Assembly: GCA_036268855.1 (NCBI GenBank)
Contig: DATATJ010000173.1
Location: 30,237 to 94,236, forward strand
Length of the DNA: 64,000 nt
Source: Vicinamibacterales bacterium
GTDB lineage: Bacteria; Acidobacteriota; Vicinamibacteria; Vicinamibacterales; CAVVIG01
Direction: 5' to 3'
Position numbers and translations under genes: made by a program
Notes under the pieces: generated by a model
The model's input: the letters and a program-made list of their open reading frames with translations, nothing else
Told to the model about the DNA's origin: nothing
The model's database searches: none
In this document: piece after piece, positions 8,772-20,197 of the stretch
How positions within the stretch are numbered: position 1 is the first letter of the stretch
Layout: each line of letters begins with the position of its first letter

Positions 8772-11687
8772 ATGCTCCGCGCCTTGTGTGCTGCGCTCAT
8801 GTCAGTCGTGCTCGCCGGTCCTGCGTACGCGCAGTCCACGGCGACCAACGGTGCGATCGAAGGCACCGTCCTCGACGCGTCAGGTGGCGTGCTGCCCGGC
8901 GTGACCGTGACGATTACCAATACCCAGACCGGCGCCGAGCAGACGGTCGTCACGAATGAAAAGGGCTTGTACCGCGCGCCGCTACTGCCGCTGGGCACGT
9001 ACCGGGTGGTGGCGGAGCTGCAGGGATTCAAGAAGTTCGAGCAGACCGGCATCACCTTGTCGGTCGGCCAGACGGCGCTGATCAACGTCACACTGGGCGT
9101 CGGCACGTTGAACGAGACGATCACCGTCAACGCCGACAGCCCGCTGCTCGACGCTGCACGCATCGACATCGGGCACACGATGAGCGACCAGGAAGTGCAC
9201 AACCTGCCGCTGGTCGCGCGCAACCCGTACAACTTCGCGCTCGTGCAGCCCGGCGTCACCGGGTACGAGAACGTCGAGTTCGGCGTGCCGCACCTGGCGG
9301 CCAACGGCGCGTCGATGCGCATCAACTACGAGATCGACGGCAACACCAACACGGAGAAGGACCGCGCCGGGCTGCGCCTGCTGCCGATGTCGGAAGTGAT
9401 GATCCAGGAAGTGAAAGTCGTCACCACCGGTTTCGCCCCCGAGTTCGGCCAGACGATGGGCATGGTGTACAACGCGGTGACGCCGTCGGGCACGAACACC
9501 TTCCGTGGTGAAGGCAGCTACCTGTTCCGCCGCAATCCGTTCAGCGCGTTCCCGTTCTACTTCGGTTGCGGCAGCACGACGGCGACGGCGAGCTGCCCGG
9601 ACATCGCCGCGAATGCGGCGAAGCCGCAGACCCGCACCGACAGCGGCACGGCGCTGCTGGGCGGCCCGATCATCAAGAACAAGCTGTTCTTCTATGGCGG
9701 GTGGGAGCAGACGCGGCGCGATCTGTCGTCGGGCAGCCTCATCACGGTGGATCCGTCGATCGTGGCGGCGGTCGGTGTCAAAGCGCAGCCGGCGGCGGCG
9801 CCGAACGTCCAGACCGCGAAATTCCTGATCGCCAAGTCGGACTACCAGATCGGCGAGGGGAATCGCGCGACCGTCCGGTGGGTGCGCTTCCACAACGACG
9901 CGCCGTACAACAGCGGCGGCGGCACGTCGACGCTCGAACGTGCAACCAACTTCCTCGACGCGATGGACTCGCTCGCGGGCCAGCTCGTGACCTCCGTCGG
10001 ATCGAGCAAGCTCAACGAGCTGCGCCTGCAGTACGCCCATCGGCACCAGGGCTCCGTCGCCAACAGCGATTCGGGCATCGGCCCGGCGATCACCATCTCG
10101 TCGCCGGCGATCGGATTCGGCAGCCCCGAATCGGGGACCGGCCAGGGCAACGCGGGCTTCGACTTCAAGCAGAACATCACCGAGGTGATCGACAACTTCA
10201 CGTATCTTCGGGGTGCGCACAGCTTCAAAGCGGGCTTCGACCTGCAGCACATCTACGACGAGCGCACGGCCGCGCCGCAGTTCGTCTACACCTTCCCGAC
10301 GCTGGCGTCGTACCTGGCGGCGAAGAGCGGAGCGAATCCCTTCGGCTATTCCTCGATGACCCAGATCACCGGCGATCTGGGATTCAACATGTCGACGAAC
10401 CTGTTCAGCACGTTCGTGCAGGACGACTGGCAGGTCGCGCCGACGGTGAAGGTGCTCTACGGCGTCCGGTACGATCTCTACAAGTATCCCGCGGGCCTGG
10501 CGAACGCGCCGCTGGCGCAGACGGCGGCGTTCAACACCGACAAGAACAACTTCGGACCGCGCGTCGGTGTCGCGTGGTCGGCCGACACGAAGACCGTGGT
10601 GCGCGCGAGCACGGGCATCATGTACGACCAGGCGATTCTGGGCGGTTACGAGCAGGCGCTGCAGCTGTCGGGCTCGCCCCGCGCGCCCGCATACACGTTC
10701 AGCGGCACCAGCGCCGGTGCGCCGGCGTTTCCCGCGTCGGCCGGCACCGGTGTCCTGACGCAGCAGTCGCCTTGGGCGATCGATCCCGGGTTCAACGTCG
10801 CGCACACCTGGCAGAGCAACGTGCAGGTGGAGCGGGCGTTCGGCAACGATATGACGGCGTCCGCGGGCGTGATGTACGCAAAGGGCACGCAGCTGCCGGT
10901 CGTCACCGACATCAACCTGATCAACCCCATCGGCACCCTCGCCGACGGCCGTCCGATCTACAACACGACGGCGAGCGCCGCGACGCGCCTCGATCCGCGC
11001 TTCAATCACATCCTCGAAGTGCAGTCGATCGGCGACTCGACGTTCAAGGGGATGACGCTGCAGATGTCCAAGCGGTTTGCGAAAGGGCTGTCGTTCAACG
11101 TGCAGTACGCGCTCAGCAAGGGTGTGGACGACACGCCGCTGCTCACACAGCTGACGGTGCAGTCGGAATCGGGCCGGTCCGATCCGAGCAACCTCACGCG
11201 CGACGAGGGGCCGAACCCGCTCGACATGCGGCATAACTTCACGGGCAACATCATCTACACGTCGAGCAGCGAGTCGTCGAATCCGGTGGTCCGCGGCCTG
11301 CTGAACGGCAATGAGCTCGGCATCCTGCTGCAGTTCAACAGCGGCCTGCCGCTGAACCAGCAGTCGAACCTCGATCTCAACAAGGACGGGGTGACCAGCG
11401 ATCGCCCGTTGAACGTGTCGCGCAACGCGCTGTACCTGCCGGCGCGCAAGAACGTGGACTTGCGCTATACGCGCTCGTTCCCGCTCGGCGGCTCCGTCAA
11501 GGCGCAGCTCATCGCCGAGCTCAAGAACGTGTTCAACACGCCGCAGTTGATGAACGTCACGACGACGATCACCACCGACGCGCTGGGCAACCCTTTGAGC
11601 GCGATTCCGTCCGATCCGCTGCAGTATCCGAACCCGGTCGGCTTCGAACAGCGCAAGTTCCAGTTGGGCTTCAAGGTTCGCTTCTGA
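8772..11687 (+). CDS. TonB-dependent outer-membrane receptor, Oar-like (CarboxypepD_reg N-terminal domain)
   Basis: Signal peptide MLRALCAALMSVVLAGPAYAQ, then GAIEGTVLDASGGVLPGVTVTITN...GLYRAPLLPLGTYRV. Long beta-barrel ending in a terminal F. AAGGAG at 8757-8762 favours ATG 8772 over the track's GTG 8766. Confidence 0.85.
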   Translation: MLRALCAALMSVVLAGPAYAQSTATNGAIEGTVLDASGGVLPGVTVTITNTQTGAEQTVVTNEKGLYRAPLLPLGTYRVVAELQGFKKFEQTGITLSVGQTALINVTLGVGTLNETITVNADSPLLDAARIDIGHTMSDQEVHNLPLVARNPYNFALVQPGVTGYENVEFGVPHLAANGASMRINYEIDGNTNTEKDRAGLRLLPMSEVMIQEVKVVTTGFAPEFGQTMGMVYNAVTPSGTNTFRGEGSYLFRRNPFSAFPFYFGCGSTTATASCPDIAANAAKPQTRTDSGTALLGGPIIKNKLFFYGGWEQTRRDLSSGSLITVDPSIVAAVGVKAQPAAAPNVQTAKFLIAKSDYQIGEGNRATVRWVRFHNDAPYNSGGGTSTLERATNFLDAMDSLAGQLVTSVGSSKLNELRLQYAHRHQGSVANSDSGIGPAITISSPAIGFGSPESGTGQGNAGFDFKQNITEVIDNFTYLRGAHSFKAGFDLQHIYDERTAAPQFVYTFPTLASYLAAKSGANPFGYSSMTQITGDLGFNMSTNLFSTFVQDDWQVAPTVKVLYGVRYDLYKYPAGLANAPLAQTAAFNTDKNNFGPRVGVAWSADTKTVVRASTGIMYDQAILGGYEQALQLSGSPRAPAYTFSGTSAGAPAFPASAGTGVLTQQSPWAIDPGFNVAHTWQSNVQVERAFGNDMTASAGVMYAKGTQLPVVTDINLINPIGTLADGRPIYNTTASAATRLDPRFNHILEVQSIGDSTFKGMTLQMSKRFAKGLSFNVQYALSKGVDDTPLLTQLTVQSESGRSDPSNLTRDEGPNPLDMRHNFTGNIIYTSSSESSNPVVRGLLNGNELGILLQFNSGLPLNQQSNLDLNKDGVTSDRPLNVSRNALYLPARKNVDLRYTRSFPLGGSVKAQLIAELKNVFNTPQLMNVTTTITTDALGNPLSAIPSDPLQYPNPVGFEQRKFQLGFKVRF

Positions 11688-11720: not shown

Positions 11721-11793
11721 CCACGAAGGGCACGAAGAACACGAAGATCCATAATGGATTTTCGGAGTCTTCGTGCCTTTCGTGTGTTCGTGG
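11721..11793. repeat. REP-like hairpin: three CACGAAG units, loop, three (C/T/G)TTCGTG units
   Basis: Left arm CCACGAAGGGCACGAAGAACACGAAGATCC (11721-11750). Right arm TCTTCGTGCCTTTCGTGTGTTCGTGG (11768-11793). Intergenic between the receptor stop and the PIG-L gene start. Confidence 0.75.
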
Positions 11794-11801
11794 TGATCAA
11801 C

Positions 11802-14654
11802 ATGTCCAAGCCGCTCCGTCGTTTCGCCCTGGCCGCCAGCCTCATCGCGGCCGCGTCGCTCACCCTGCCCGCTCAGATGCGCGTCGTGCCGCTCGACGAC
11901 GAGCAGGGGCACGTCGCGCTCGGTCTGGCGCTGCGGCACCTCTCCAACGTCGGCATCTTCATGCACACCACCGCGCACCCCGACGACGAGAACAACGCGC
12001 TGCTGGTGATGCTCAACCGGGGACAGGGATTCCGCACGGCCCTGGCGACGGCCACGCGCGGGAACGGCGGCCAGAACGAGATCGGCCCGGAGATTTTCGA
12101 AGCGCTCGGCGTGCTGCGAACCGGCGAGCTCGCCGCGCTGCACCGCTTCGACGGCGCCGAGCAGTACTTCACTCGCGCGGTCGATTTCGGCTATTCGTTC
12201 GGCATCGACGAAACGTTTGAAAAGTGGGGCCGCACCGAGATCACCTCCGACTACGTGCGCTTGATCCGGATGATTCGCCCCGACGTCGTGATCGCCCTCC
12301 CGCCGACGGGCAACGCGGGCGGCCAGCATCACATGGCCTCGTCCGTGATCACGCACGATGCGGTGAAGCTGGCAGGCGACGCGACGAAGTTCCCCGAGCA
12401 GATCAAGGACGGCCTGCACGCGTGGCAGCCGAAGAAGTTCTACGAGAGCGCCGGCTTCGGCTTTCCGGGTGAGCCGCAGACGCCCGGTCCTCTGACGCGC
12501 GTCAACAGCTCCATCTACGACCCGCTGCTCGGCAAGACGTACACGGAAATCGGCATCGAGGCGCGCAGTATGCACAAGTGCCAGGGCATGGGCCAGCTGC
12601 TGGCGCTGCCCGGTACCACCGGCACCGCGAGCTACCGCCTCGTGGAATCGACCTTGCCCGCGCAGGCCGCGGAGGAGAAGTCGCTGTTCGACGGCATCGA
12701 CACCACCGTCGCGGGCCTGGCGAAGTTCGTTCCCGGCAAGCCGCCGAAGGAGCTGACGGAAGGCCTCACTGCTATCACCGGCGCCGTCCTCGCCTCGCAG
12801 AAGGCGTTCGACACGCAGAACGACGAAGCCACGTTGCCGCACCTGATCAACGGCCTCCGCGCCGTGCGGACGCTGCGCCGCCAGCTGCGCACCCTCAACA
12901 TCGACGACGCCGCGAAATTCGAGATCGATTTCCGTCTGCGCCAGAAGGAAGGCGAGTTCCAGAAGGCGGCGATTCTCGCCAATGGCATCACCGTGGACGT
13001 GCTGGCTGACGACGGGATCGTCGTGCCCGGGCAGCCGGTGAAGGTCAACGTCATCGTCGCCAACCACGGCGCCGCGGAGGTCGTGATCAAGCAGGTGAAG
13101 ATCGGCGGCTTCGAAGGCGACGCGACGTGCTCGATGGTGGCGTTCACGGCGAGCCCGTTCGGTTTCCCGGTCGGGCGCGGGCGCGGCGCCGAGGCGCCAG
13201 CCGCGGCGATGTCCACGTTGAGAAAAGATCAGACGGCCCACTGCGAGCCGGCGCTGACGATTCCCGCCGCCGAGCGGATTACAGAACCGTACTGGCACCG
13301 CAAGGATTTCGGGGGCCGCTACACGTTCGACGATGATGCGCCGTTCGGGCTGCCGTTCCGGCCGACGCCGTTTTATGCACAGGTGACGCTGGGCCTGCCG
13401 GGCGGCGAGGAGATCATCGACGGCCTGCCGGTGCAGCACCGCTATCAGGGCAACATCTTCAGCGGCGAAAAACGGACCGACCTGCTCGTGGTGCCGGCGC
13501 TGTCTGTGCGAGTCTCGCCGGAGATCGCCATCGTGCCGGCCGACGCCGTTCGGCCAGCGGCCGCGCCGACGACGACAAAGTCGACCCGCACGGCGGCTGG
13601 CCGCGGGCGCGGGGCCGCGGCTGCCGCCGCGTCGGCTCCGGCCAAGAACGCTCCGTCGCCGACGCGCGAGATCCGCGTCACCGTCGTCAACGACACGAAC
13701 GGCCCGAAGGAGAGTTCGGTGAAGCTCCAGATGCCGGCCGGGTGGACCGCGGCGCCGCCGCAGCAGTCCGTGAGCTTCACCCGCGCGGACGAGTCGCTGA
13801 CCGTGCGGTTCGTGGTCAAGCCGAGCCCCGTCGCGACGCCGGGCGCCTATCGGGTGCAGGCCGTCGCGACATCCGGATCGCAGTCCTTCGATCGCGGCTA
13901 CGAGGTGATCGAGTACCCGCACATCAGCCGCTATCACATCTACGACAGCGCGGACACCACGCTGAAGATTCTCGACGTCAAGACGGCCCCGAATCTGGTG
14001 GTGGGCTACGTGATGGGGGTTGGCGATCAGGTGCCGTCCGCCATCGAGCAGCTCGGCGCCAAAGTCGAGATGATCAGCGCGGACGACCTGGCGTGGGGCA
14101 ACCTGTCGCGCTTCGACGTGATCGTCACCGGCGTCCGCGCGTACGAGCGGCGCGAGGATCTGCGCGCGAACAACTCGCGCCTGCTGGACTATGTGAAGAA
14201 CGGCGGCTTGATGATCGTGCAGTACAACAAGTTCGAGTTCAACGACGCGCAGTACGGGCCGTACCCGGCGAAGGTGAGCGCGAATCGCATCACGGACGAG
14301 GGCGCGCCAGTCAAGGTGCTCGAGCCGGAGAACAAAGTGTTTACGCAGCCGAACCGGATCCAGCCGTCGGCCTGGAACGGCTGGGTGCAGGAGCGCGGAC
14401 TCTACTTCCTTGGCGAAAAAGATTCGCGCTACAAGGATCTGCTGGAGATGGAAGATCAGTTCCCGTACAACAAGGGCGTCAAGGACGGGGCGCTGGTGGA
14501 AGCGACCTACGGCAAGGGCAAGTGGATCTACGTCGGGCTGAACTTCTGGCGGCAGCTACCCGAGGGCACCGACGGCGCGTATCAACTGTTCGCGAATCTG
14601 CTGAGCGTGGGCAAGACGACGGCGCCGGTAGTGCCGGCGATCAAGGGAAAGTAG
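11802..14654 (+). CDS. large secreted PIG-L/LmbE-family deacetylase, multidomain
   Basis: Start chosen at MSKPLRRFALAASLIAAASLTLPAQ (signal peptide). LmbE signature HTTAHPDDENNALLVML. C-terminal block FDVIVTGVRAYE...GGLMIVQYN looks like a class-I glutamine-amidotransferase-like fold (inference). Confidence 0.75.
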   Translation: MSKPLRRFALAASLIAAASLTLPAQMRVVPLDDEQGHVALGLALRHLSNVGIFMHTTAHPDDENNALLVMLNRGQGFRTALATATRGNGGQNEIGPEIFEALGVLRTGELAALHRFDGAEQYFTRAVDFGYSFGIDETFEKWGRTEITSDYVRLIRMIRPDVVIALPPTGNAGGQHHMASSVITHDAVKLAGDATKFPEQIKDGLHAWQPKKFYESAGFGFPGEPQTPGPLTRVNSSIYDPLLGKTYTEIGIEARSMHKCQGMGQLLALPGTTGTASYRLVESTLPAQAAEEKSLFDGIDTTVAGLAKFVPGKPPKELTEGLTAITGAVLASQKAFDTQNDEATLPHLINGLRAVRTLRRQLRTLNIDDAAKFEIDFRLRQKEGEFQKAAILANGITVDVLADDGIVVPGQPVKVNVIVANHGAAEVVIKQVKIGGFEGDATCSMVAFTASPFGFPVGRGRGAEAPAAAMSTLRKDQTAHCEPALTIPAAERITEPYWHRKDFGGRYTFDDDAPFGLPFRPTPFYAQVTLGLPGGEEIIDGLPVQHRYQGNIFSGEKRTDLLVVPALSVRVSPEIAIVPADAVRPAAAPTTTKSTRTAAGRGRGAAAAAASAPAKNAPSPTREIRVTVVNDTNGPKESSVKLQMPAGWTAAPPQQSVSFTRADESLTVRFVVKPSPVATPGAYRVQAVATSGSQSFDRGYEVIEYPHISRYHIYDSADTTLKILDVKTAPNLVVGYVMGVGDQVPSAIEQLGAKVEMISADDLAWGNLSRFDVIVTGVRAYERREDLRANNSRLLDYVKNGGLMIVQYNKFEFNDAQYGPYPAKVSANRITDEGAPVKVLEPENKVFTQPNRIQPSAWNGWVQERGLYFLGEKDSRYKDLLEMEDQFPYNKGVKDGALVEATYGKGKWIYVGLNFWRQLPEGTDGAYQLFANLLSVGKTTAPVVPAIKGK

Positions 14655-14707: not shown

Positions 14708-15103
14708 TTACGGGCCCTTCTTGATGACCCGAACGCGCATCGTCCTGCGGCCGAAGTGGACGGCGCCGGCGCAGCTGGGCATGAAGATGTCGACCGTTCG
14801 CCCCTTCACTGCACTACCTGTATCCATCACCGTGTAAATTCCACCGTACTGTCGAGGTGGACCGATGATGCGGAGGACGGTGCCGAGGGGCAGGAAACGG
14901 GGGTCAGCCGCGACGATGCCTGGCTGGGCGTCGACGCCAGATTTCGTGGTGCCACGCTGGCAATAGGCCGTGGCGACCACCCGCATCGTGCCGTCTGATT
15001 GGGACTTGGGGGTTTCCGACGACTCTGCTGCCGTCGCCATCAAGCATGGGCTGAGGAGCAGGCAGAGAACGGATGAGCCGACAATCCGCGAGAGACTGGG
15101 CAC
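14708..15103 (-). CDS. 3D-domain (MltA/YabE-like) secreted protein
   Basis: 131 aa. Signal peptide, then VVATAYC...TKSGV...GIVAADPRFLPLGT...DTGSAVKGRTVDIF, which fits the 3D domain. Confidence 0.7.
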   Translation of the reverse strand: MPSLSRIVGSSVLCLLLSPCLMATAAESSETPKSQSDGTMRVVATAYCQRGTTKSGVDAQPGIVAADPRFLPLGTVLRIIGPPRQYGGIYTVMDTGSAVKGRTVDIFMPSCAGAVHFGRRTMRVRVIKKGP

Positions 15104-15115
15104 CCAAGGGACGGT

Positions 15116-15643
15116 TCAAGGCTCATGCCGGGGACGCGATGGCCGGCTCAGCCAGATGAAGAAGGCGATCAGGAACGCGGCTGGGATGAACGGCCCCCAC
15201 CATTCGCGCAGGCCGAACGCCGACAGCGCTCCCGACCCGAGCTTCACCAGCAGCATCAGCGCGCTCGCCCAGGCAAACGCGCTCAGCGTGTTGAGCGCGC
15301 TGAATTTCAGCGGACGCACGTTCGCGTACGCGCAGGCCACCGGGATTGCCGTCCGCAGACCGGGAAGAAATCGGCTGGCCAGGATGATCAGCCCTTCGTG
15401 CGCGTGCACATGTGCGCTGACGCGATCCCGGTATTTCGCGATCTTCGGATAGCGATTGAGCCATTCCACGCGGCCGCGCAGCACATAAAACCAGAGCTGA
15501 TCGCCGGTTGCGCCGCCGAGGGCGCCGGCAATCAGCACGGGGATCCAGTGGAGTCGGCCGCTGATCGCGAGCCCGCACGCGCTGATGTAGTAGATCTCGC
15601 CCTCGAGAATGGCGGCGATGTAGATCGGCAGGTAGACGAACAT
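15116..15643 (-). CDS. DedA/VTT-family membrane protein
   Basis: 175 aa, multi-TM. Contains the GDQLWFYVLRG and ASRFLPGLRT motifs of the DedA family. Its ATG overlaps the upstream TAA by 1 nt (TAATG). Confidence 0.8.
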   Translation of the reverse strand: MFVYLPIYIAAILEGEIYYISACGLAISGRLHWIPVLIAGALGGATGDQLWFYVLRGRVEWLNRYPKIAKYRDRVSAHVHAHEGLIILASRFLPGLRTAIPVACAYANVRPLKFSALNTLSAFAWASALMLLVKLGSGALSAFGLREWWGPFIPAAFLIAFFIWLSRPSRPRHEP

Positions 15644-16887
15644 TACGTGGCGAGCACGTCGCGCACGGTGGCGGCGACGCGATCGACCTGTTCGCGGGTC
15701 AATCCCGCGTAGATCGGAATCTGCATCGCCTGTGCCGCCCGGCGCGCGCCGTCTGCCTGTGCGGTGGCTCCCTGAAACAGCTCCATGTCCGGCGGCACGT
15801 CCACGTGCAGCGTCTCCACGTCGATACCGCGCCGGACGCAGCGGACGACGAGGTCGTCGCGCTTCGGGCCGTCCGGCCCGTACACGCAGTACTGGTAGTA
15901 GACGTGCGTGCGATCCGGCGGCACCTGCGGCACCTTGACGCCGGGAACCTCACCGAGCACGGCGTCCACGCGGCGCGCATTGTCCTGCACCTGCGCAGTC
16001 CATCCGTCGAGGCGCTTCAGCGCGGCGAGGCCGATGGCCGCCTGCACGTTCGGAAAGCGCTCCGTGTACTGATCCGGCAGCGGGTGCAGCGATCGGATCT
16101 TCTCCCAGAGGAACACGTCGGGGTTCGCGTCGATGAGCGCGGAGACCCAGAGCACCGGAAACAGCGAAATCGAAAAGACCCACGGCTTGATGAAGATGCG
16201 CTGCAGGCGCCCCGTCAGCAGGCGGTCGCGGACGCGCTTCTCGCTCGGCCATGGCCGCACGTCGACAATCGCGCGCACCTTCGCCGCGACGCCGGCGTCA
16301 TGTACCAGCGCCATCCCTCCGCCGTAGCAGTTGAGCGGCTTCAGGGTCTGAAAGCTGAACAGCGCGCCGGTGCCGAACGTACCGACGGGCCGGCCCTTGA
16401 ACGTGGCGCCGAGCGCGTGCGCACAATCCTCGATGACGACGAGATTGTGGCGCGCGGCGATGTCCAGGATGCGGTCCATGTCGCACGGCAGCCCGTACAG
16501 GTGCGTCGGCACGATCGCGCGGGTCTTGTCGGTGATCAGGCGCTCGACCGAGTCCGGATCCAGGTTGAACGTCGCCGGATCGACGTCGGCGAAGACGACC
16601 GTGAGGCCTGCGACGCGGGCCAGCTCGGGGACGACCCAGAACGTCAGGGAGGGAAAGATGATCTCGGACCCGGCCGGGAGATCCAGCGCCTTCAGGATGT
16701 AGTAGAACGCGATGCGCCCGTACGCCGCGGAGATCGCCGTGCCGCGGCCGGCGCGCTGCTCGAACGCGCGCTCGAACTCGGCAATCTCGGGTCCCTGGAT
16801 GAATTCGCCGCGCGCCTTGAGACGCGCGACGATCTCTTCGGTCTCGGGCAGGACTCGCGCGCCGTAGCGCGAGATGGCGGTCAGCAT
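15643..16887 (-). CDS. DegT/DnrJ/EryC1/StrS-family PLP aminotransferase
   Basis: 414 aa. Contains GSEIIFPSLTFWVVPE, VVIEDCAHALGA and FSFQTLKPLNCYGGG (candidate PLP lysine). Confidence 0.85.
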   Translation of the reverse strand: MLTAISRYGARVLPETEEIVARLKARGEFIQGPEIAEFERAFEQRAGRGTAISAAYGRIAFYYILKALDLPAGSEIIFPSLTFWVVPELARVAGLTVVFADVDPATFNLDPDSVERLITDKTRAIVPTHLYGLPCDMDRILDIAARHNLVVIEDCAHALGATFKGRPVGTFGTGALFSFQTLKPLNCYGGGMALVHDAGVAAKVRAIVDVRPWPSEKRVRDRLLTGRLQRIFIKPWVFSISLFPVLWVSALIDANPDVFLWEKIRSLHPLPDQYTERFPNVQAAIGLAALKRLDGWTAQVQDNARRVDAVLGEVPGVKVPQVPPDRTHVYYQYCVYGPDGPKRDDLVVRCVRRGIDVETLHVDVPPDMELFQGATAQADGARRAAQAMQIPIYAGLTREQVDRVAATVRDVLAT

Positions 16888-16986
16888 CGATCGAAGCGTA
16901 CTACGAGACCACGAATCACGCTCGACGCAGAAGCCGCGGATCGAACACCGCGCGCCGCGTGTTCCGCGTCGAGTGCCGCGCCGGTT

Positions 16987-18396
16987 TCAGCAGGCCACGG
17001 GGCGCGAGATGTCGGCGATCTCCTCGCGCGAATGGCGATCGTTCACGCGCCGGTCCATCCGGCTCACCCACTCGCGGACGCCGGTGTTCTGAATCTTGAG
17101 GAAGTTCGCCAGGTACGACGGCCGCATATAAAATCTCTTGTACGCGGCGCCGAGCAGGAATTTCAGCTCGTGATTCGTCAGGTTCGGGTGCTTGAACGTC
17201 GGGCTGAACCCATCGAACTGCTCCCAGTCGGTCTCGGTGAGCAGCGGTTCGATCTGCTTGAACATCGGCGTGCCCGGATACGGCGTCAGCATCTTGAACT
17301 GCGCGAACGTCGATCCGAGATCGGTCGCGTAATCGATGGTCGCCGCGATCGAGCTCCAGTCGTCCTGCAGGAAGCCGAGCACATAGAAGGCCGCCGTGAC
17401 GATGCCGAGCTTGCGGCAGTGGCCGATGATCTCGCGCTGGTGCGCCTGCGGAATCGGGCGCCGTCCCGACTTCTTGAGAATCGCCGGGTCGAGCGATTCG
17501 ACGCCGAAGCTCATCGCGCGGAAGCCCGCTTTGTAGAGCATGTCGAGCAGCTCCACGTCGAGCCGATCCAGCCGCGTTTCGGCCTCGAACGTCAGCGAGA
17601 GGCCGCGCCGGCCAATCTCTTCGCACAACTCCACGACGCGATCGCGCTGCTCGGTGAAGAGCGGGTCGCGGAAGATCACGTACGGCCGCTTGACCTGGTC
17701 GCAGAGCCGCTCCATCTCGTCCACGATGTTCGTGATCGACCGCACGCGGTAGCCGGCGAGAATGCGATGGGGGCAGTACGTGCAGAACTCCGGGCAGCCG
17801 CGGCTCGCCAGCAGCGGATACCCGCCGCCGATGGGGCGCGACGACCACTTGATGCCGGTCTTGAACGCGCGCCCTTCGGTGACCAGGTCCCACCGCGGAA
17901 ACGGCAGCGAGTCGAGATCGTTGATCTGCTCGCTGACGACGATGCCCGACGGGATTTCGCCCTGCGCCAGGCGCATCACCGCGCCTTCGGGCTCGCCGTT
18001 GAGGATGAAATCGCAGTGGCCGGCAAACAGCTCCGGCATCTTCGAGGCCGTGATGCCGATGAAGCCGACTTTCACGCCGCGGGCGCGCATCATGTCGGCC
18101 CACGCCGTTTCGGCCTTGTAGTCCACCAGCGACGACAGGACAAGGGCGACGTCGCCGTCCACGGCCTCGCCGCGCGTCCACTTCACCTCGTGGTTGGCGC
18201 GCGCGAGAATCGCCGCGATGTACGCCATGTGGACGCTGGGCACGTCGTGATATTTTTTCTTGAGATACGCCATCACGGCGGTGACGCGCGAGAACGGATT
18301 GAGCCGCGACCCGTATCCGCCGACCACCGTGTCTTTACTGACGAATCCTCGATCCGACTTCAAATCTGCGAGCACGACTCGCATGGGCCACCTCAA
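16987..18396 (-). CDS. B12-binding-domain radical SAM protein (class B)
   Basis: 469 aa. N-terminal flavodoxin-like/B12-like region. CxxxCxxC cluster motif in ASRGCPEFCTYCPH. The start may instead be ATG 18384 (MRVVLADLK). Confidence 0.85.
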   Translation of the reverse strand: MRWPMRVVLADLKSDRGFVSKDTVVGGYGSRLNPFSRVTAVMAYLKKKYHDVPSVHMAYIAAILARANHEVKWTRGEAVDGDVALVLSSLVDYKAETAWADMMRARGVKVGFIGITASKMPELFAGHCDFILNGEPEGAVMRLAQGEIPSGIVVSEQINDLDSLPFPRWDLVTEGRAFKTGIKWSSRPIGGGYPLLASRGCPEFCTYCPHRILAGYRVRSITNIVDEMERLCDQVKRPYVIFRDPLFTEQRDRVVELCEEIGRRGLSLTFEAETRLDRLDVELLDMLYKAGFRAMSFGVESLDPAILKKSGRRPIPQAHQREIIGHCRKLGIVTAAFYVLGFLQDDWSSIAATIDYATDLGSTFAQFKMLTPYPGTPMFKQIEPLLTETDWEQFDGFSPTFKHPNLTNHELKFLLGAAYKRFYMRPSYLANFLKIQNTGVREWVSRMDRRVNDRHSREEIADISRPVAC

Positions 18397-18429
18397 TCTG
18401 CGGAACCGGAACCTGCGTGAACGCCGGCA

Positions 18430-18870
18430 TCAGCCGGCGACAGGCGGCCCCCGGGGCGATCGCGGCGAGAAGTCGTGGGCTTTCGGCTGGCGAACGCAGG
18501 CGCGGGCGAGCACCCCGATCGGTTCGAGCGCAAACGCGACGCTGGTGTCGGCGTCCACGAAGGCCGCCGGCGCGTCGTTCTGAATCACCGCGTCGTCGTC
18601 GTCGATAGACGTGTGAGGGGCGTGCTGCAGCCGCAAACCTTCGTCGATGAGGCCCGCCGGCCCGCGCGAGTACGGATGGGCGACCGGCCCGCTGAGCGAT
18701 TTCGTGACACGTACGAGCTTGTGAAGCGTGAGGCCGGCCTGCGGGTCGCACACCCTCCCTCGGCTGACACCTGCCTGGGCTGCCAGCGCGATCGAGGGGA
18801 CGAGCAGCCACAACAACACGAGGCCGCCGCCCTTCACCAGGCTCCGAACGAGGGATGAAGAGGAACGCAT
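18430..18870 (-). CDS. hypothetical secreted protein (first gene of the radical-SAM operon)
   Basis: The internal ATG at 18870 gives MRSSSSLVRSLVKGGGLVLLWLLVPSIALAAQA (signal-like). GC-rich third codon positions. No recognisable domain. Confidence 0.5.
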   Translation of the reverse strand: MRSSSSLVRSLVKGGGLVLLWLLVPSIALAAQAGVSRGRVCDPQAGLTLHKLVRVTKSLSGPVAHPYSRGPAGLIDEGLRLQHAPHTSIDDDDAVIQNDAPAAFVDADTSVAFALEPIGVLARACVRQPKAHDFSPRSPRGPPVAG

Positions 18871-19213: not shown

Positions 19214-20197
19214 ATGCCGCCCATCAAGCGGACGAAGTTCAAGCTCTCGTCGGAACAGCTGCTCGAGATGTTTCAGTGGCTCAAGCTGATTCGCGCGTTC
19301 GATGAGCGGCTCAGCATTCTCGTCAAGCAGGGCCAGGTCCGCAGCGGCGTCTATACCGGCATCGGCCAGGAAGCGGTGATCGTCGGTACCGGGTTCGGGC
19401 TGCGCACGGACGACTACATCTGCCCGCTCCATCGCGATCTCGGGTCCTTCCTCATGAAGGGGGTGGAGCCCCGCGTGATGATGTCGCAGATGTTCGGCAA
19501 ACCAACGGGCCTGTCCAAGGGCCGCGACTCGGCGCTGCACAGCGGCGTGTCCGAGCTGGGGATTTTCGGCAACACGAGCATGCTCGGCGCGAATCTGCCG
19601 GTGGCGGCGGGCCTCGCGCTCACCTTCAAGATGGAGCAGACCGACCGCGTCGTCGTCGCGTACTTCGGCGAGGGCGCGAGCAACGTCGGCGACTTCCACG
19701 AAGCGCTGAATTTCGCAGGCGTCCAGCGGCTTCCCGTCGTTTTCGTCTGCGAAAACAACCAGTACGCCTACTCCGTTCCGCTCGAGAAGAGCATGGCGAT
19801 CGACGACGTCGCCGATCGCGCGGAGAGCTATGGGTTCGAGGGCGTGTCGATCAACGGCAACGACGTGCTGGCGGTCTACCAGTCCACGGTCGGCGCCATC
19901 GCGCACGCCCGCAGCGGCGAGGGGCCGACGCTCATCGAGTGCAAGACCTACCGCTGGCACGGCCACTCGGAGCACGACAAGGCGTTTTATCGATCCGACG
20001 AAGAGCTCGCGATGTGGAAGAGCCGCGACCCGATTCCGACATTCACCACCTACCTCCAGGCGCGCCACGTGCTGGACGATGCGAAGCTGAAGGAGATTGA
20101 AGCGCGCGTCAAGGACACGATCGACGATGCGGTGGAGTACGCGGCGAACGCGCCGGAGCCGCGACTCGAAGATGCCGTGACGGATCTCTATGCGTAG
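19214..20197 (+). CDS. TPP-dependent 2-oxoacid dehydrogenase E1 component, alpha subunit
   Basis: 327 aa. TPP-binding block GEGASNVGDFHEALNFAGVQRLPVVFVCENNQYA. Confidence 0.9.
   Translation: MPPIKRTKFKLSSEQLLEMFQWLKLIRAFDERLSILVKQGQVRSGVYTGIGQEAVIVGTGFGLRTDDYICPLHRDLGSFLMKGVEPRVMMSQMFGKPTGLSKGRDSALHSGVSELGIFGNTSMLGANLPVAAGLALTFKMEQTDRVVVAYFGEGASNVGDFHEALNFAGVQRLPVVFVCENNQYAYSVPLEKSMAIDDVADRAESYGFEGVSINGNDVLAVYQSTVGAIAHARSGEGPTLIECKTYRWHGHSEHDKAFYRSDEELAMWKSRDPIPTFTTYLQARHVLDDAKLKEIEARVKDTIDDAVEYAANAPEPRLEDAVTDLYA

Follow-up and report, generated by a model that had tools for sequence, protein, structure and literature searches.

A conserved radical SAM–DegT–DedA gene trio in Vicinamibacterales and its candidate translation-arrest leader

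RESULTS

Organization of the locus

The DNA analyzed here, hereafter the window, is a stretch of 64,000 nt with a GC content of ca. 67% from a member of the Vicinamibacterales (Acidobacteriota subdivision 6; contig DATATJ010000173.1). It carries an operon encoding a small exported protein, a radical S-adenosylmethionine (SAM) enzyme, a DegT-family aminotransferase and a DedA-family membrane protein. An earlier note on this DNA had described these as four co-directional genes between 18870 and 15116, and the list of open reading frames (ORFs) with their translations confirms them, all on the minus strand. The TAATG overlap that it pointed out between the DegT and DedA genes is real, with one nucleotide shared at nt 15643. 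The radical SAM and DegT reading frames are backed by a GC content at third codon positions of 0.88, and a JGI metagenome contig of essentially the same sequence has public gene calls that agree with all four genes. The features are listed below.

18430..18870, minus strand: exported small protein or leader ORF, 146 aa (ORF call; positional homologues)
18442..18453, minus strand: codons of the candidate arrest motif R140-G141-P142-P143, CGG GGG CCG CCT (read from the sequence)
18385..18394, minus strand: Shine–Dalgarno (SD) sequence of the radical SAM gene, GAGGTG (18394..18389), plus spacer (read from the sequence)
16987..18384, minus strand: AprD4-like radical SAM enzyme, 465 aa (Pfam, NCBIfam, PDB match)
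15643..16887, minus strand: DegT-family pyridoxal phosphate-dependent aminotransferase, 414 aa, catalytic Lys183 (PF01041, PDB folds)
16069..16266, minus strand: subfamily-specific insertion of the DegT protein, ca. residues 208–273 (pairwise alignment with perosamine synthase)
15116..15643, minus strand: DedA/VTT-domain membrane protein, 175 aa (PF09335, hydrophobicity)

Conservation of the radical SAM, DegT, and DedA genes

A genome scan with one genome per species gave a best set of 80 loci, all Vicinamibacteria-like, with radical SAM identities of 61–95%; the closest loci all come from metagenome-assembled genomes of Vicinamibacteria. Neighboring genes were counted by tblastn with the window proteins against these loci. 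The DegT gene adjoins the radical SAM gene in 74 of the 80 loci and the DedA gene does so in 68, a co-conservation of the trio that is far above chance. Conservation of the neighborhood was a check that the earlier note had proposed, with a lack of it counted as refutation, and for these three genes the outcome is favorable.

The trio also occurs in rearranged form in other lineages. At 55% radical SAM identity, on the contig of P0121, the order is radical SAM–DegT–second radical SAM with DedA on the opposite strand. The second radical SAM gene is shorter (362 aa) and this contig also encodes a Cupin_8/JmjC-type protein; the window contains neither. At 45% identity, in an organism with 38% GC, the order is radical SAM–DedA and DegT is on the opposite strand; related aminotransferases carry the label ‘bacterium ADurb.Bin363’. 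The trio is present in Blastocatellia/HR10-type Acidobacteriota as well, and the radical SAM–DegT pair occurs in a cluster that includes a Chloroflexota (Limnocylindrales) label. Since the trio is kept despite altered order and strand, we regard it as a functional module, which upholds the proposal in the earlier note that the genes form a unit.

Two points weigh against this reading. The loci are phylogenetically related, so the counts are not independent and the statistics overstate independence. Furthermore, 6 of the 80 loci lack DegT beside the radical SAM gene. In these six (L029, L036, L056, L060, L078, and L079) DedA directly follows the radical SAM gene and no DegT gene is found within the fetched 8 kb; in L056 and L060 the leader is missing too, and a DUF72-like gene stands upstream in its place. 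In such genomes DegT may sit elsewhere, or the radical SAM–DedA pair may work alone.

Other deviations concern the neighbors. The deep-branching loci L062, L065, L067, and L075 are without DedA and carry after DegT a gene for a 315-aa GalE/WbpP-type NAD-dependent epimerase/dehydratase (ca. 10700–11680), which would fit a pathway that includes a nucleotide-sugar stage. A TatA gene lies upstream on the same strand, a few genes away, in three Blastocatellia/HR10-type loci (L088, 4845–5087; L090, 4205–4447; L091, 4337–4576), and directly before the radical SAM gene in the 55%-identity relative. Through this neighbor the module could be connected with protein export, as would suit control by an export-sensing arrest peptide. 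In L092 (5165–7782, 45% GC), where the radical SAM–DegT pair has no adjacent DedA, the neighbors are an MprF-type LPG_synthase_C protein and a VirJ/AcvB-like hydrolase, which belong to another membrane-charge modification system. Finally, L014 and P0067 (83–86% radical SAM identity) and L069 (65%) show Vicinamibacteria-type synteny under the public labels Bifidobacteriaceae, Bifidobacterium, or Rokuibacteriota; these labels are probably binning errors.

The small ORF as a candidate arrest leader

The product of the first gene has a hydrophobic signal-like segment at its N-terminus (residues 10–36), followed by ALAAQA, and no named family was found for it in Pfam or NCBIfam. Its C-terminus reads R140-G141-P142-P143, followed by three sense codons (V-A-G) and a stop codon at 18432..18430 that lies 46 nt upstream of the radical SAM start. 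The earlier note had taken this gene for a secreted component of the pathway. That assignment is disfavored by the observation that the only conserved feature of the protein is the C-terminal RGPP/RAPP sequence, which is typical of arrest leaders (PMC12992588).

The presence of a leader could be tested in 77 of the 80 loci. A positional ORF ending in R[GA]PP just upstream of the radical SAM gene was found in 66 of these and in the window. The distance from the motif to the stop codon is 2–8 residues (3 residues in 45 of the 67 leaders), and the stop codon lies 41–150 nt before the radical SAM start. The match to the motif is partly circular with the search pattern, while its position and frequency are not. 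A C-terminal R[GA]PP occurs in only 1 of the 287 six-frame ORFs of the window and in 77 of the 5316 ORFs of the 80 loci; ca. 66 of those 77 are the leader itself, and the background is ca. 0.2% of ORFs. The leader body is 31–67% identical where the radical SAM protein is 82–95% identical, and it is lost from tblastn in deeper loci. Across loci, positions 1 and 2 of the arrest-motif codons are fixed and position 3 is near maximum entropy, so the constraint on R[GA]PP acts on the peptide. A signal-like N-terminal segment is present in 49 of the 67 leaders by a crude criterion and in most of the others by eye, and the median leader length is ca. 157 aa. Deeper Vicinamibacteria leaders and those of HR10/Blastocatellia type contain FG-GAP repeats above the Pfam cutoff, the former ending in RAPP and the latter in GRSPP, in both cases plus 3–6 residues.

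The published arrest peptides provide a close precedent. RAPP and RGPP cause the most robust, EF-P-refractory arrest; these motifs are depleted from proteomes and enriched near the C-terminus of small secretory proteins, and the genes downstream of such proteins are co-directional and diverse in function (PMC12992588). In Streptomyces lividans, seven peptides of this type have been recognized as arrest peptides (Fujiwara et al. 2025, PMC12992588), and RSPP variants group with RAPP leaders (PMC10987492). The window protein has an R-[A/G]-P-P sequence near the C-terminus of a protein of <300 aa and an N-terminal signal or transmembrane segment, as the arrest peptides do. Because its anatomy matches that of published SecM/ApdA/ApdP-type arrest peptides, it is a candidate arrest peptide, and we consider it most likely that the small ‘secreted protein’ is in fact a translation-arrest leader. 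That this leader regulates the operon appears probable on the same grounds. A point against it is that 11 of the 77 loci are without a leader.

Two other explanations of this ORF were considered. The radical SAM enzyme, with or without DegT, might modify the C-terminal SPRSPRGPP tail of the exported protein before export, in the manner of a ribosomally synthesized and post-translationally modified peptide (RiPP). The strict adjacency of the small ORF to the radical SAM gene, the conservation of the C-terminal motif alone, and weak matches of the radical SAM protein to ApyD, rSAM_ocin_1, and the MCR glutamine methylase MgmA would fit such a role. However, the tail carries precisely the published RAPP/RGPP/RSPP arrest motif, spaced from the stop as in the known cases (PMC12992588, PMC10987492), DegT is of sugar type, and codon selection at the nucleotide level, described below, points to a function in the mRNA. 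Moreover, the trio is found without a leader ORF in other lineages. The tail was therefore dropped as a RiPP core peptide, and protein modification by these enzymes seems hardly credible.

The second explanation holds that the leader is an ordinary periplasmic protein whose RGPP has no regulatory role, the operon being constitutive or transcriptionally controlled. The FG-GAP repeats of the deep-branching leaders are genuine and could have a function of their own, and the modeling of SD release presented in the next section is weak and gives no consensus structure. Against this, the motif is invariant while the body drifts, and it always stands 2–8 codons from the stop and 41–150 nt from the radical SAM start. 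We consider an ordinary protein quite improbable and retain the arrest leader.

The junction between the leader and the radical SAM gene

In SecM-type systems a stem-loop hides the downstream SD sequence and is opened by the stalled ribosome (PMC10987492, PMC10951233). The radical SAM gene has a strong SD sequence, GAGGTG, four nt ahead of the ATG. In the window, the G-P-P codons of the leader, GGGCCGCCT (18450..18442), are complementary to this SD sequence and its spacer; read out, GGGCCGCCU of the G-P-P codons faces AGGUGGCCC of the SD sequence plus spacer. The duplex between the SD sequence and the arrest region has a computed energy of −25.4 kcal/mol, compared to −11 to −19 for control windows.

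A helix opposing the SD sequence was examined in the 29 loci with short spacers (41–56 nt). In these loci UCACCUCG pairs with CGAGGUGA, and the S-P-R codons before the stall site are UCA/G-CCU-CGN, complementary to (U/C)GAGGUGA. The helix has 88.8% of its cells paired, as compared to 31–55% on sliding the register. Codon usage is skewed in the same region toward codons that this genome seldom employs elsewhere: CCU makes up 55% at the Pro preceding the motif (background 4.8%), UCA 32% at the preceding Ser (1.4%), GGU/GGA 79% at the motif Gly (16%), and CCU/CCA 58% at the first of the two motif Pro residues (9%). When five candidate partners of the SD sequence were compared, the arrest region ranked first in 32 of the 67 loci, against an expectation of 13. 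These results make sequestration of the SD sequence by the arrest region of the leader a plausible geometry, which for the window itself we put forward tentatively.

Several results count against SD control. No covariation can be demonstrated in the helix because both sides are constrained, and the duplex statistics are inflated by the inherent resemblance of Pro-Pro codons to an anti-SD sequence. RNAalifold on the 29 leader–radical SAM junctions gave no convincing consensus (−1.4 kcal/mol, one compensatory pair). By single-sequence folding the window junction is no more stable than shuffled sequences (z = −0.69). In ensemble folding, blocking the ribosome footprint raised the accessibility of the SD sequence only modestly, from 0.14 to 0.24, and in the full-length fold of the window sequence the SD pairs mostly with a different partner just outside the footprint.

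A perfect 7-bp GC hairpin, CGCCGGC-UGAU-GCCGGCG, is present at 18422–18439 (minus strand), with the leader stop codon in its loop, a few nt past the position of the stall. The 5′ arm of the hairpin would be melted by a ribosome stalled there. A scan for sigma-70 promoters and intrinsic terminators gave nothing useful, and an Rfam search of the window returned zero matches.

The radical SAM enzyme

The CPEFCTYC motif reported in the earlier note was read in the protein as C197-PEF-C201-TY-C204. The Radical_SAM domain PF04055 scores 55 bits, and C197, C201, and C204 are invariant in 70 homologues. With this CxxxCxxC cluster motif and a TIM-barrel core the protein belongs to the radical SAM superfamily. 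The B12 domain claimed for the enzyme was not borne out: PF02310 scores 12 bits (E = 0.19; cutoff 32.1) and is not listed at E ≤ 0.01. When compared to the NCBIfam hidden Markov models, another check proposed in the earlier note, the protein reached no equivalog cutoff and falls into no characterized subfamily. The top match is HpnJ (TIGR03471) with 112–114 bits at a cutoff of 577.6, followed by the AprD4 model NF033070 with 103.4 bits (cutoff 500; not a member) and BchE with 96 bits. Since the HpnJ, AprD4, and BchE scores are about equal, the NCBIfam comparison does not fix the reaction type, which speaks against a firm functional assignment.

AprD4 dehydrates a 1,2-diol by radical SAM chemistry; its target is a glucosamine ring, from which it forms a 4′-oxo-3′-deoxy product. 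AprD4 is the only strong PDB sequence match of the window enzyme (E = 1.7e-25, 22% identity). The AlphaFold model (pLDDT 91.5) has a Rossmann-like N-terminal domain and its best PDB fold is again AprD4 (6fd2; TM 0.77–0.79, E about 1e-25), the top match being a complex with paromamine. The cobalamin enzymes MgmA, CysS, TsrM, OxsB, and TokK reach TM 0.57–0.65. AprD4 binds no cobalamin although it clusters with B12-dependent radical SAM enzymes (PMC12931638). We describe the window protein as an AprD4-like enzyme that by sequence and fold would work alike, not as a member of that family.

The earlier note had proposed a cobalamin-dependent class B radical SAM enzyme that C-methylates or rearranges an amino sugar or lipid made by DegT, with the small protein as a secreted component. 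Weak NCBIfam matches to HpnR, PhpK, a ladderane enzyme, BzaD, and GenK-like methylases, the fold similarity to TsrM, TokK, CysS, and OxsB, and the Rossmann-like N-terminal domain are in line with that proposal. Nevertheless, the PF02310 score is poor and AprD4, without cobalamin, is clearly the best match both in sequence and in fold (PMC12931638). C-alkylation is further disfavored because a methylase would not supply the carbonyl group that an aminotransferase needs, the homologues pair with ketoreductase-type short-chain dehydrogenases/reductases (SDRs), and the arrest motif is the sole conserved part of the small protein. Cobalamin-dependent alkylation is thus rather improbable, and an AprD4-like dehydration is preferred.

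The wider radical SAM family comprises 657 clusters at E < 1e-30. Members at 36–41% identity occur in glycan clusters with GT4, GT2, and PMT_2-type GT-C glycosyltransferases, polysaccharide deacetylase, and methyltransferases; the PMT_2 GT-C was found only in the distant radical SAM–SDR cluster L085. Each of these members is followed by an extended SDR of RmlD/epimerase type at overlapping or near-overlapping coordinates. This order, with a ketoreductase after a dehydratase, corresponds to that of AprD4/AprD3, and as judged from the gene order of the window operon the aminotransferase stands in the place of the reductase. Domains of the family also occur inside very large multidomain proteins: P0186 (2633 aa), P0210 (1826 aa), P0259 (2331 aa), P0266 (1879 aa), P0258, P0234, and P0220.

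The DegT aminotransferase

The assignment of the third protein as a sugar-type aminotransferase stands: its best matches are C4 sugar enzymes and the catalytic lysine is intact. PF01041 scores 252 bits (cutoff 19.8). K183 aligns with the lysine of perosamine synthase, and K183, D154, and E153 are invariant in 55 homologues. The best sequence matches are GDP-perosamine synthase, PseC, DesI, and ArnB, with scyllo-inosose aminotransferases also found, and the best PDB folds of the model (pLDDT 88) are GDP-perosamine synthase and ArnB. With scores of 152, 156, and 156 bits the protein reaches none of the ArnB, PseC, and DesI/perosamine equivalog cutoffs (631, 423.5, and 650).

Pairwise alignment revealed an insertion of ca. 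60 residues (208–273) that is missing from perosamine synthase; solved relatives are ca. 50 residues shorter. Homologues as distant as 42% identity, among them the low-GC clade, retain the insertion, and F238, P244, and W261 are invariant in it. It consists of a basic helix (residues 216–233, net charge +4) and an 18-residue uncharged hydrophobic helix-Pro-helix (235–252), and it is modeled as helical. We know of no ArnB-type enzyme with a hydrophobic insertion. The composition suggests a monotopic membrane anchor, which would imply a membrane-bound substrate; that the membrane role is read from hydrophobicity alone counts against it.

The DegT protein also bears on an HpnJ-like alternative, in which the radical SAM enzyme would convert a lipid-linked glucosamine into a keto-cyclitol by ring contraction, to be aminated by DegT in the way of inosose aminotransferases, giving a lipid-linked aminocyclitol head group. 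HpnI, HpnK, and HpnJ act jointly in hopanoid cyclitol ether synthesis (PMC5462960). The alternative draws on HpnJ as the top NCBIfam match, on the DegT matches to scyllo-inosose aminotransferases, and on the HpnK-type YdjC and GT2 genes of the extended operons described below. The HpnJ score is far under its cutoff, however, the fold favors AprD4, and DegT matches C4 nucleotide-sugar aminotransferases better than inosose aminotransferases. Acidobacteria of subdivisions 4 and 6 are without shc and hopanoids, except for Chloracidobacterium thermophilum in subdivision 4 (PMC5462960). A hopanoid (HpnIJK) role was therefore excluded for these hosts, and the alternative would require a different lipid as acceptor. 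Ring contraction is improbable, and dehydration followed by transamination at C4 remains our preferred assignment.

DedA and the lipid-carrier context

The DedA protein scores 46.9 bits with PF09335 (cutoff 33.9). It does not reach the equivalog cutoff of the undecaprenyl-phosphate transporter UptA (26.8 bits, cutoff 250). In the HR10/Blastocatellia-type loci L090 and L091 the operon reads leader, radical SAM, DegT, DedA, FtsX-type permease, YdjC deacetylase, and ArnC-like GT2. The YdjC protein is above the cutoff of the HpnK model (238 bits, cutoff 232.6), and the GT2 protein scores 196 bits with the model of the undecaprenyl-phosphate Ara4FN transferase (ArnC). In the Vicinamibacterales locus L006 a YdjC–GT2 pair lies 6 kb upstream on the same strand. 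The YdjC-family protein NaxD deacetylates undecaprenyl-phosphate-GalNAc, an example of the way in which a GT2 and a YdjC deacetylase together form a module that makes undecaprenyl-phosphate-hexosamine for lipid A modification (PMC11279074). The extension of the Blastocatellia-type operons into these functions makes the envelope and lipid-carrier context proposed in the earlier note likely.

No GT2, YdjC, or GT-C transferase gene was found in the 64-kb window, and GT2/YdjC genes are adjacent in few lineages only, which weighs against a lipid-linked substrate. There is also no GT-C beside the trio. With GT2 and YdjC genes absent from the window, and no enzyme found that would pass the sugar to a final acceptor, a lipid-carrier hexosamine is a doubtful assignment for the substrate.

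The earlier note could match the operon to no described pathway, and we agree: none of the four proteins reaches an NCBIfam equivalog cutoff. A search of the literature on the radical SAM, DegT, and DedA combination and on Vicinamibacter lipids found no description of the operon.

Flanking genes

A fifth co-directional gene begins 13 nt past the DedA stop and encodes an exported accessory protein with a 3D (MltA/RlpA-like) domain (14708..15103, minus strand; PF06725, 46.7 bits). It is probably co-transcribed in the window. It is not a core member of the operon since it is found in just 11 of the 80 related loci. The public gene call uses an internal ATG start and gives a 110-aa protein without signal peptide, whereas initiation at an upstream GTG codon at 15103 yields 131 aa, including a hydrophobic N-terminus, and suits an exported peptidoglycan-acting protein better.

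The operon is flanked by genes on the opposite strand, a convergent PIG-L-family gene ending at 14654 and the divergent genes for the alpha and beta subunits of a 2-oxoacid dehydrogenase E1 component starting at 19214. The PIG-L protein (966 aa; 11754–14654, plus strand) combines a domain of the GlcNAc-PI de-N-acetylase family with an NPCBM_assoc domain and is syntenic across many Vicinamibacterales loci at 58–82% identity. It may degrade glycans without any link to the operon, or be a deacetylase of relevance to the pathway. PIG-L, E1, epimerase, and TetR flanks occur in the closer clade only and at variable distances, and for that reason we attribute them to synteny and not to linkage. For this reason, and because they lie on the opposite strand, the four were ruled out as operon members.

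DISCUSSION

The observations suggest a translationally regulated operon in which sensing of export or of the state of the envelope controls a membrane-associated amino-sugar pathway; from the analysis as a whole we rate this slightly short of an even chance. In the proposed mechanism, the nascent leader chain would stall the ribosome at R-G-P|P, three codons ahead of the stop. Pulling of the leader through the Sec translocon, or its folding or ligand binding on the outside, would keep the stall brief, and the SD sequence of the radical SAM gene would stay paired with the 3′ coding region of the leader. When export falters or the envelope is in a poor state, the stalled ribosome would cover this region, the SD would be freed, and the radical SAM, DegT, and DedA genes would be translated.

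For the enzymes, a lipid-phosphate-HexNAc would be made and then deacetylated. The radical SAM enzyme would take a hydrogen from the vicinal diol of the hexosamine-type sugar, leading by dehydration to a keto-deoxy sugar. The membrane-held DegT would transaminate the ketone, most likely at C4, to give a deoxy-diamino sugar on a polyprenyl-phosphate carrier. DedA would flip the loaded carrier or recycle the free carrier, and the cationic sugar could be attached to an envelope component. In more general terms, a radical-generated carbonyl group would be aminated on a membrane-associated sugar, a step whose chances seem nearly balanced.

Joining all parts in their most specific form gives a more daring picture. 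The leader would be a Sec-export-sensing arrest peptide, or one sensing periplasmic divalent cations via the FG-GAP/DxDxDG repeats seen in deeper-branching leaders, that acts as a purely translational switch of envelope charge. A cobalamin-free radical SAM dehydratase and a monotopic DegT acting on polyprenyl-phosphate-hexosamine would produce a 2,4-diamino-2,3,4-trideoxy-hexose donor that is flipped by DedA. In this complete form the scheme is unlikely. If true, it would be a functional analogue of the PhoPQ/PmrAB control of Arn built from unrelated parts.

The leader resembles the RAPP/RGPP arrest peptides (ApdA, ApdP, the SecM-related ‘monitoring substrates’, CruR, and the S. lividans set) in its small exported form, the RGPP near the stop, a variable body with a conserved C-terminal core, and a co-directional gene 46 nt further on with a strong SD sequence. 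It differs in its targets: those of the known arrest peptides include Sec/YidC components, TonB receptors, copper proteins, and thioredoxins, while here they would be a radical SAM enzyme, DegT, and DedA. Also different are the FG-GAP repeats of the deep-branching leaders. The text and text-form supplements of PMC12992588 mention neither radical SAM, DedA, and DegT nor Vicinamibacter/Vicinamibacteria. Our analysis indicates that the leader is most likely an addition to the RAPP/RGPP arrest peptides, and that the genes under its control would form a class new to them.

The enzymes recall three known systems. With AprD4/AprD3, the dehydratase and NADPH reductase of apramycin C3′ deoxygenation, the window enzyme shares the Rossmann-like N-terminal domain and the lack of a detectable B12 domain; the substrate ring of AprD4 belongs to a glucosamine glycoside, and distant members of the window family are followed by a reductase-type SDR. 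Here, in contrast, the partner is an aminotransferase, and the setting is primary metabolism or the envelope in Acidobacteriota instead of an aminoglycoside cluster. DesI/DesII/DesV of desosamine and BtrN/BtrS of butirosin biosynthesis follow a common logic in which a carbonyl is generated or shifted on a sugar or cyclitol by a radical SAM enzyme and then becomes the site of amination by a DegT-family enzyme. DesII and BtrN are from other radical SAM subfamilies, however, and no matches to them were found for the window protein; the substrates of those pathways are soluble nucleotide sugars or cyclitols, and no DedA protein takes part in them. The Arn, NaxD-FlmF2-FlmK, and LgmABC systems share an ArnB-like DegT and DedA, with an ArnC-like GT2 and YdjC in the relatives, and the same expected outcome, a cationic sugar on a lipid carrier. 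They lack a radical SAM step, and their control is by PhoPQ/PmrAB as opposed to an arrest peptide; no ArnA, ArnD, ArnT, or ArnE/F was found in the window. The module would thus join the AprD4/AprD3, Des/Btr, and Arn/NaxD logics, together with an insertion-bearing DegT subfamily, in an arrangement of which we found no description.

If the proposal is correct, RAPP/RGPP control extends from genes for protein localization and metals to an envelope-biosynthetic operon, in an abundant and poorly studied soil phylum, with a leader case that is clean and widely conserved. The analysis defines a conserved radical SAM–DegT–DedA module in several classes of Acidobacteriota and in at least two other lineages. 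Also suggested are a new pairing, in which transamination follows an AprD4-type radical dehydration, and what may be the first case of adaptation to a membrane-bound substrate in the DegT family. A DedA protein moreover gains a defined biosynthetic context, which bears on the question of what DedA proteins transport.

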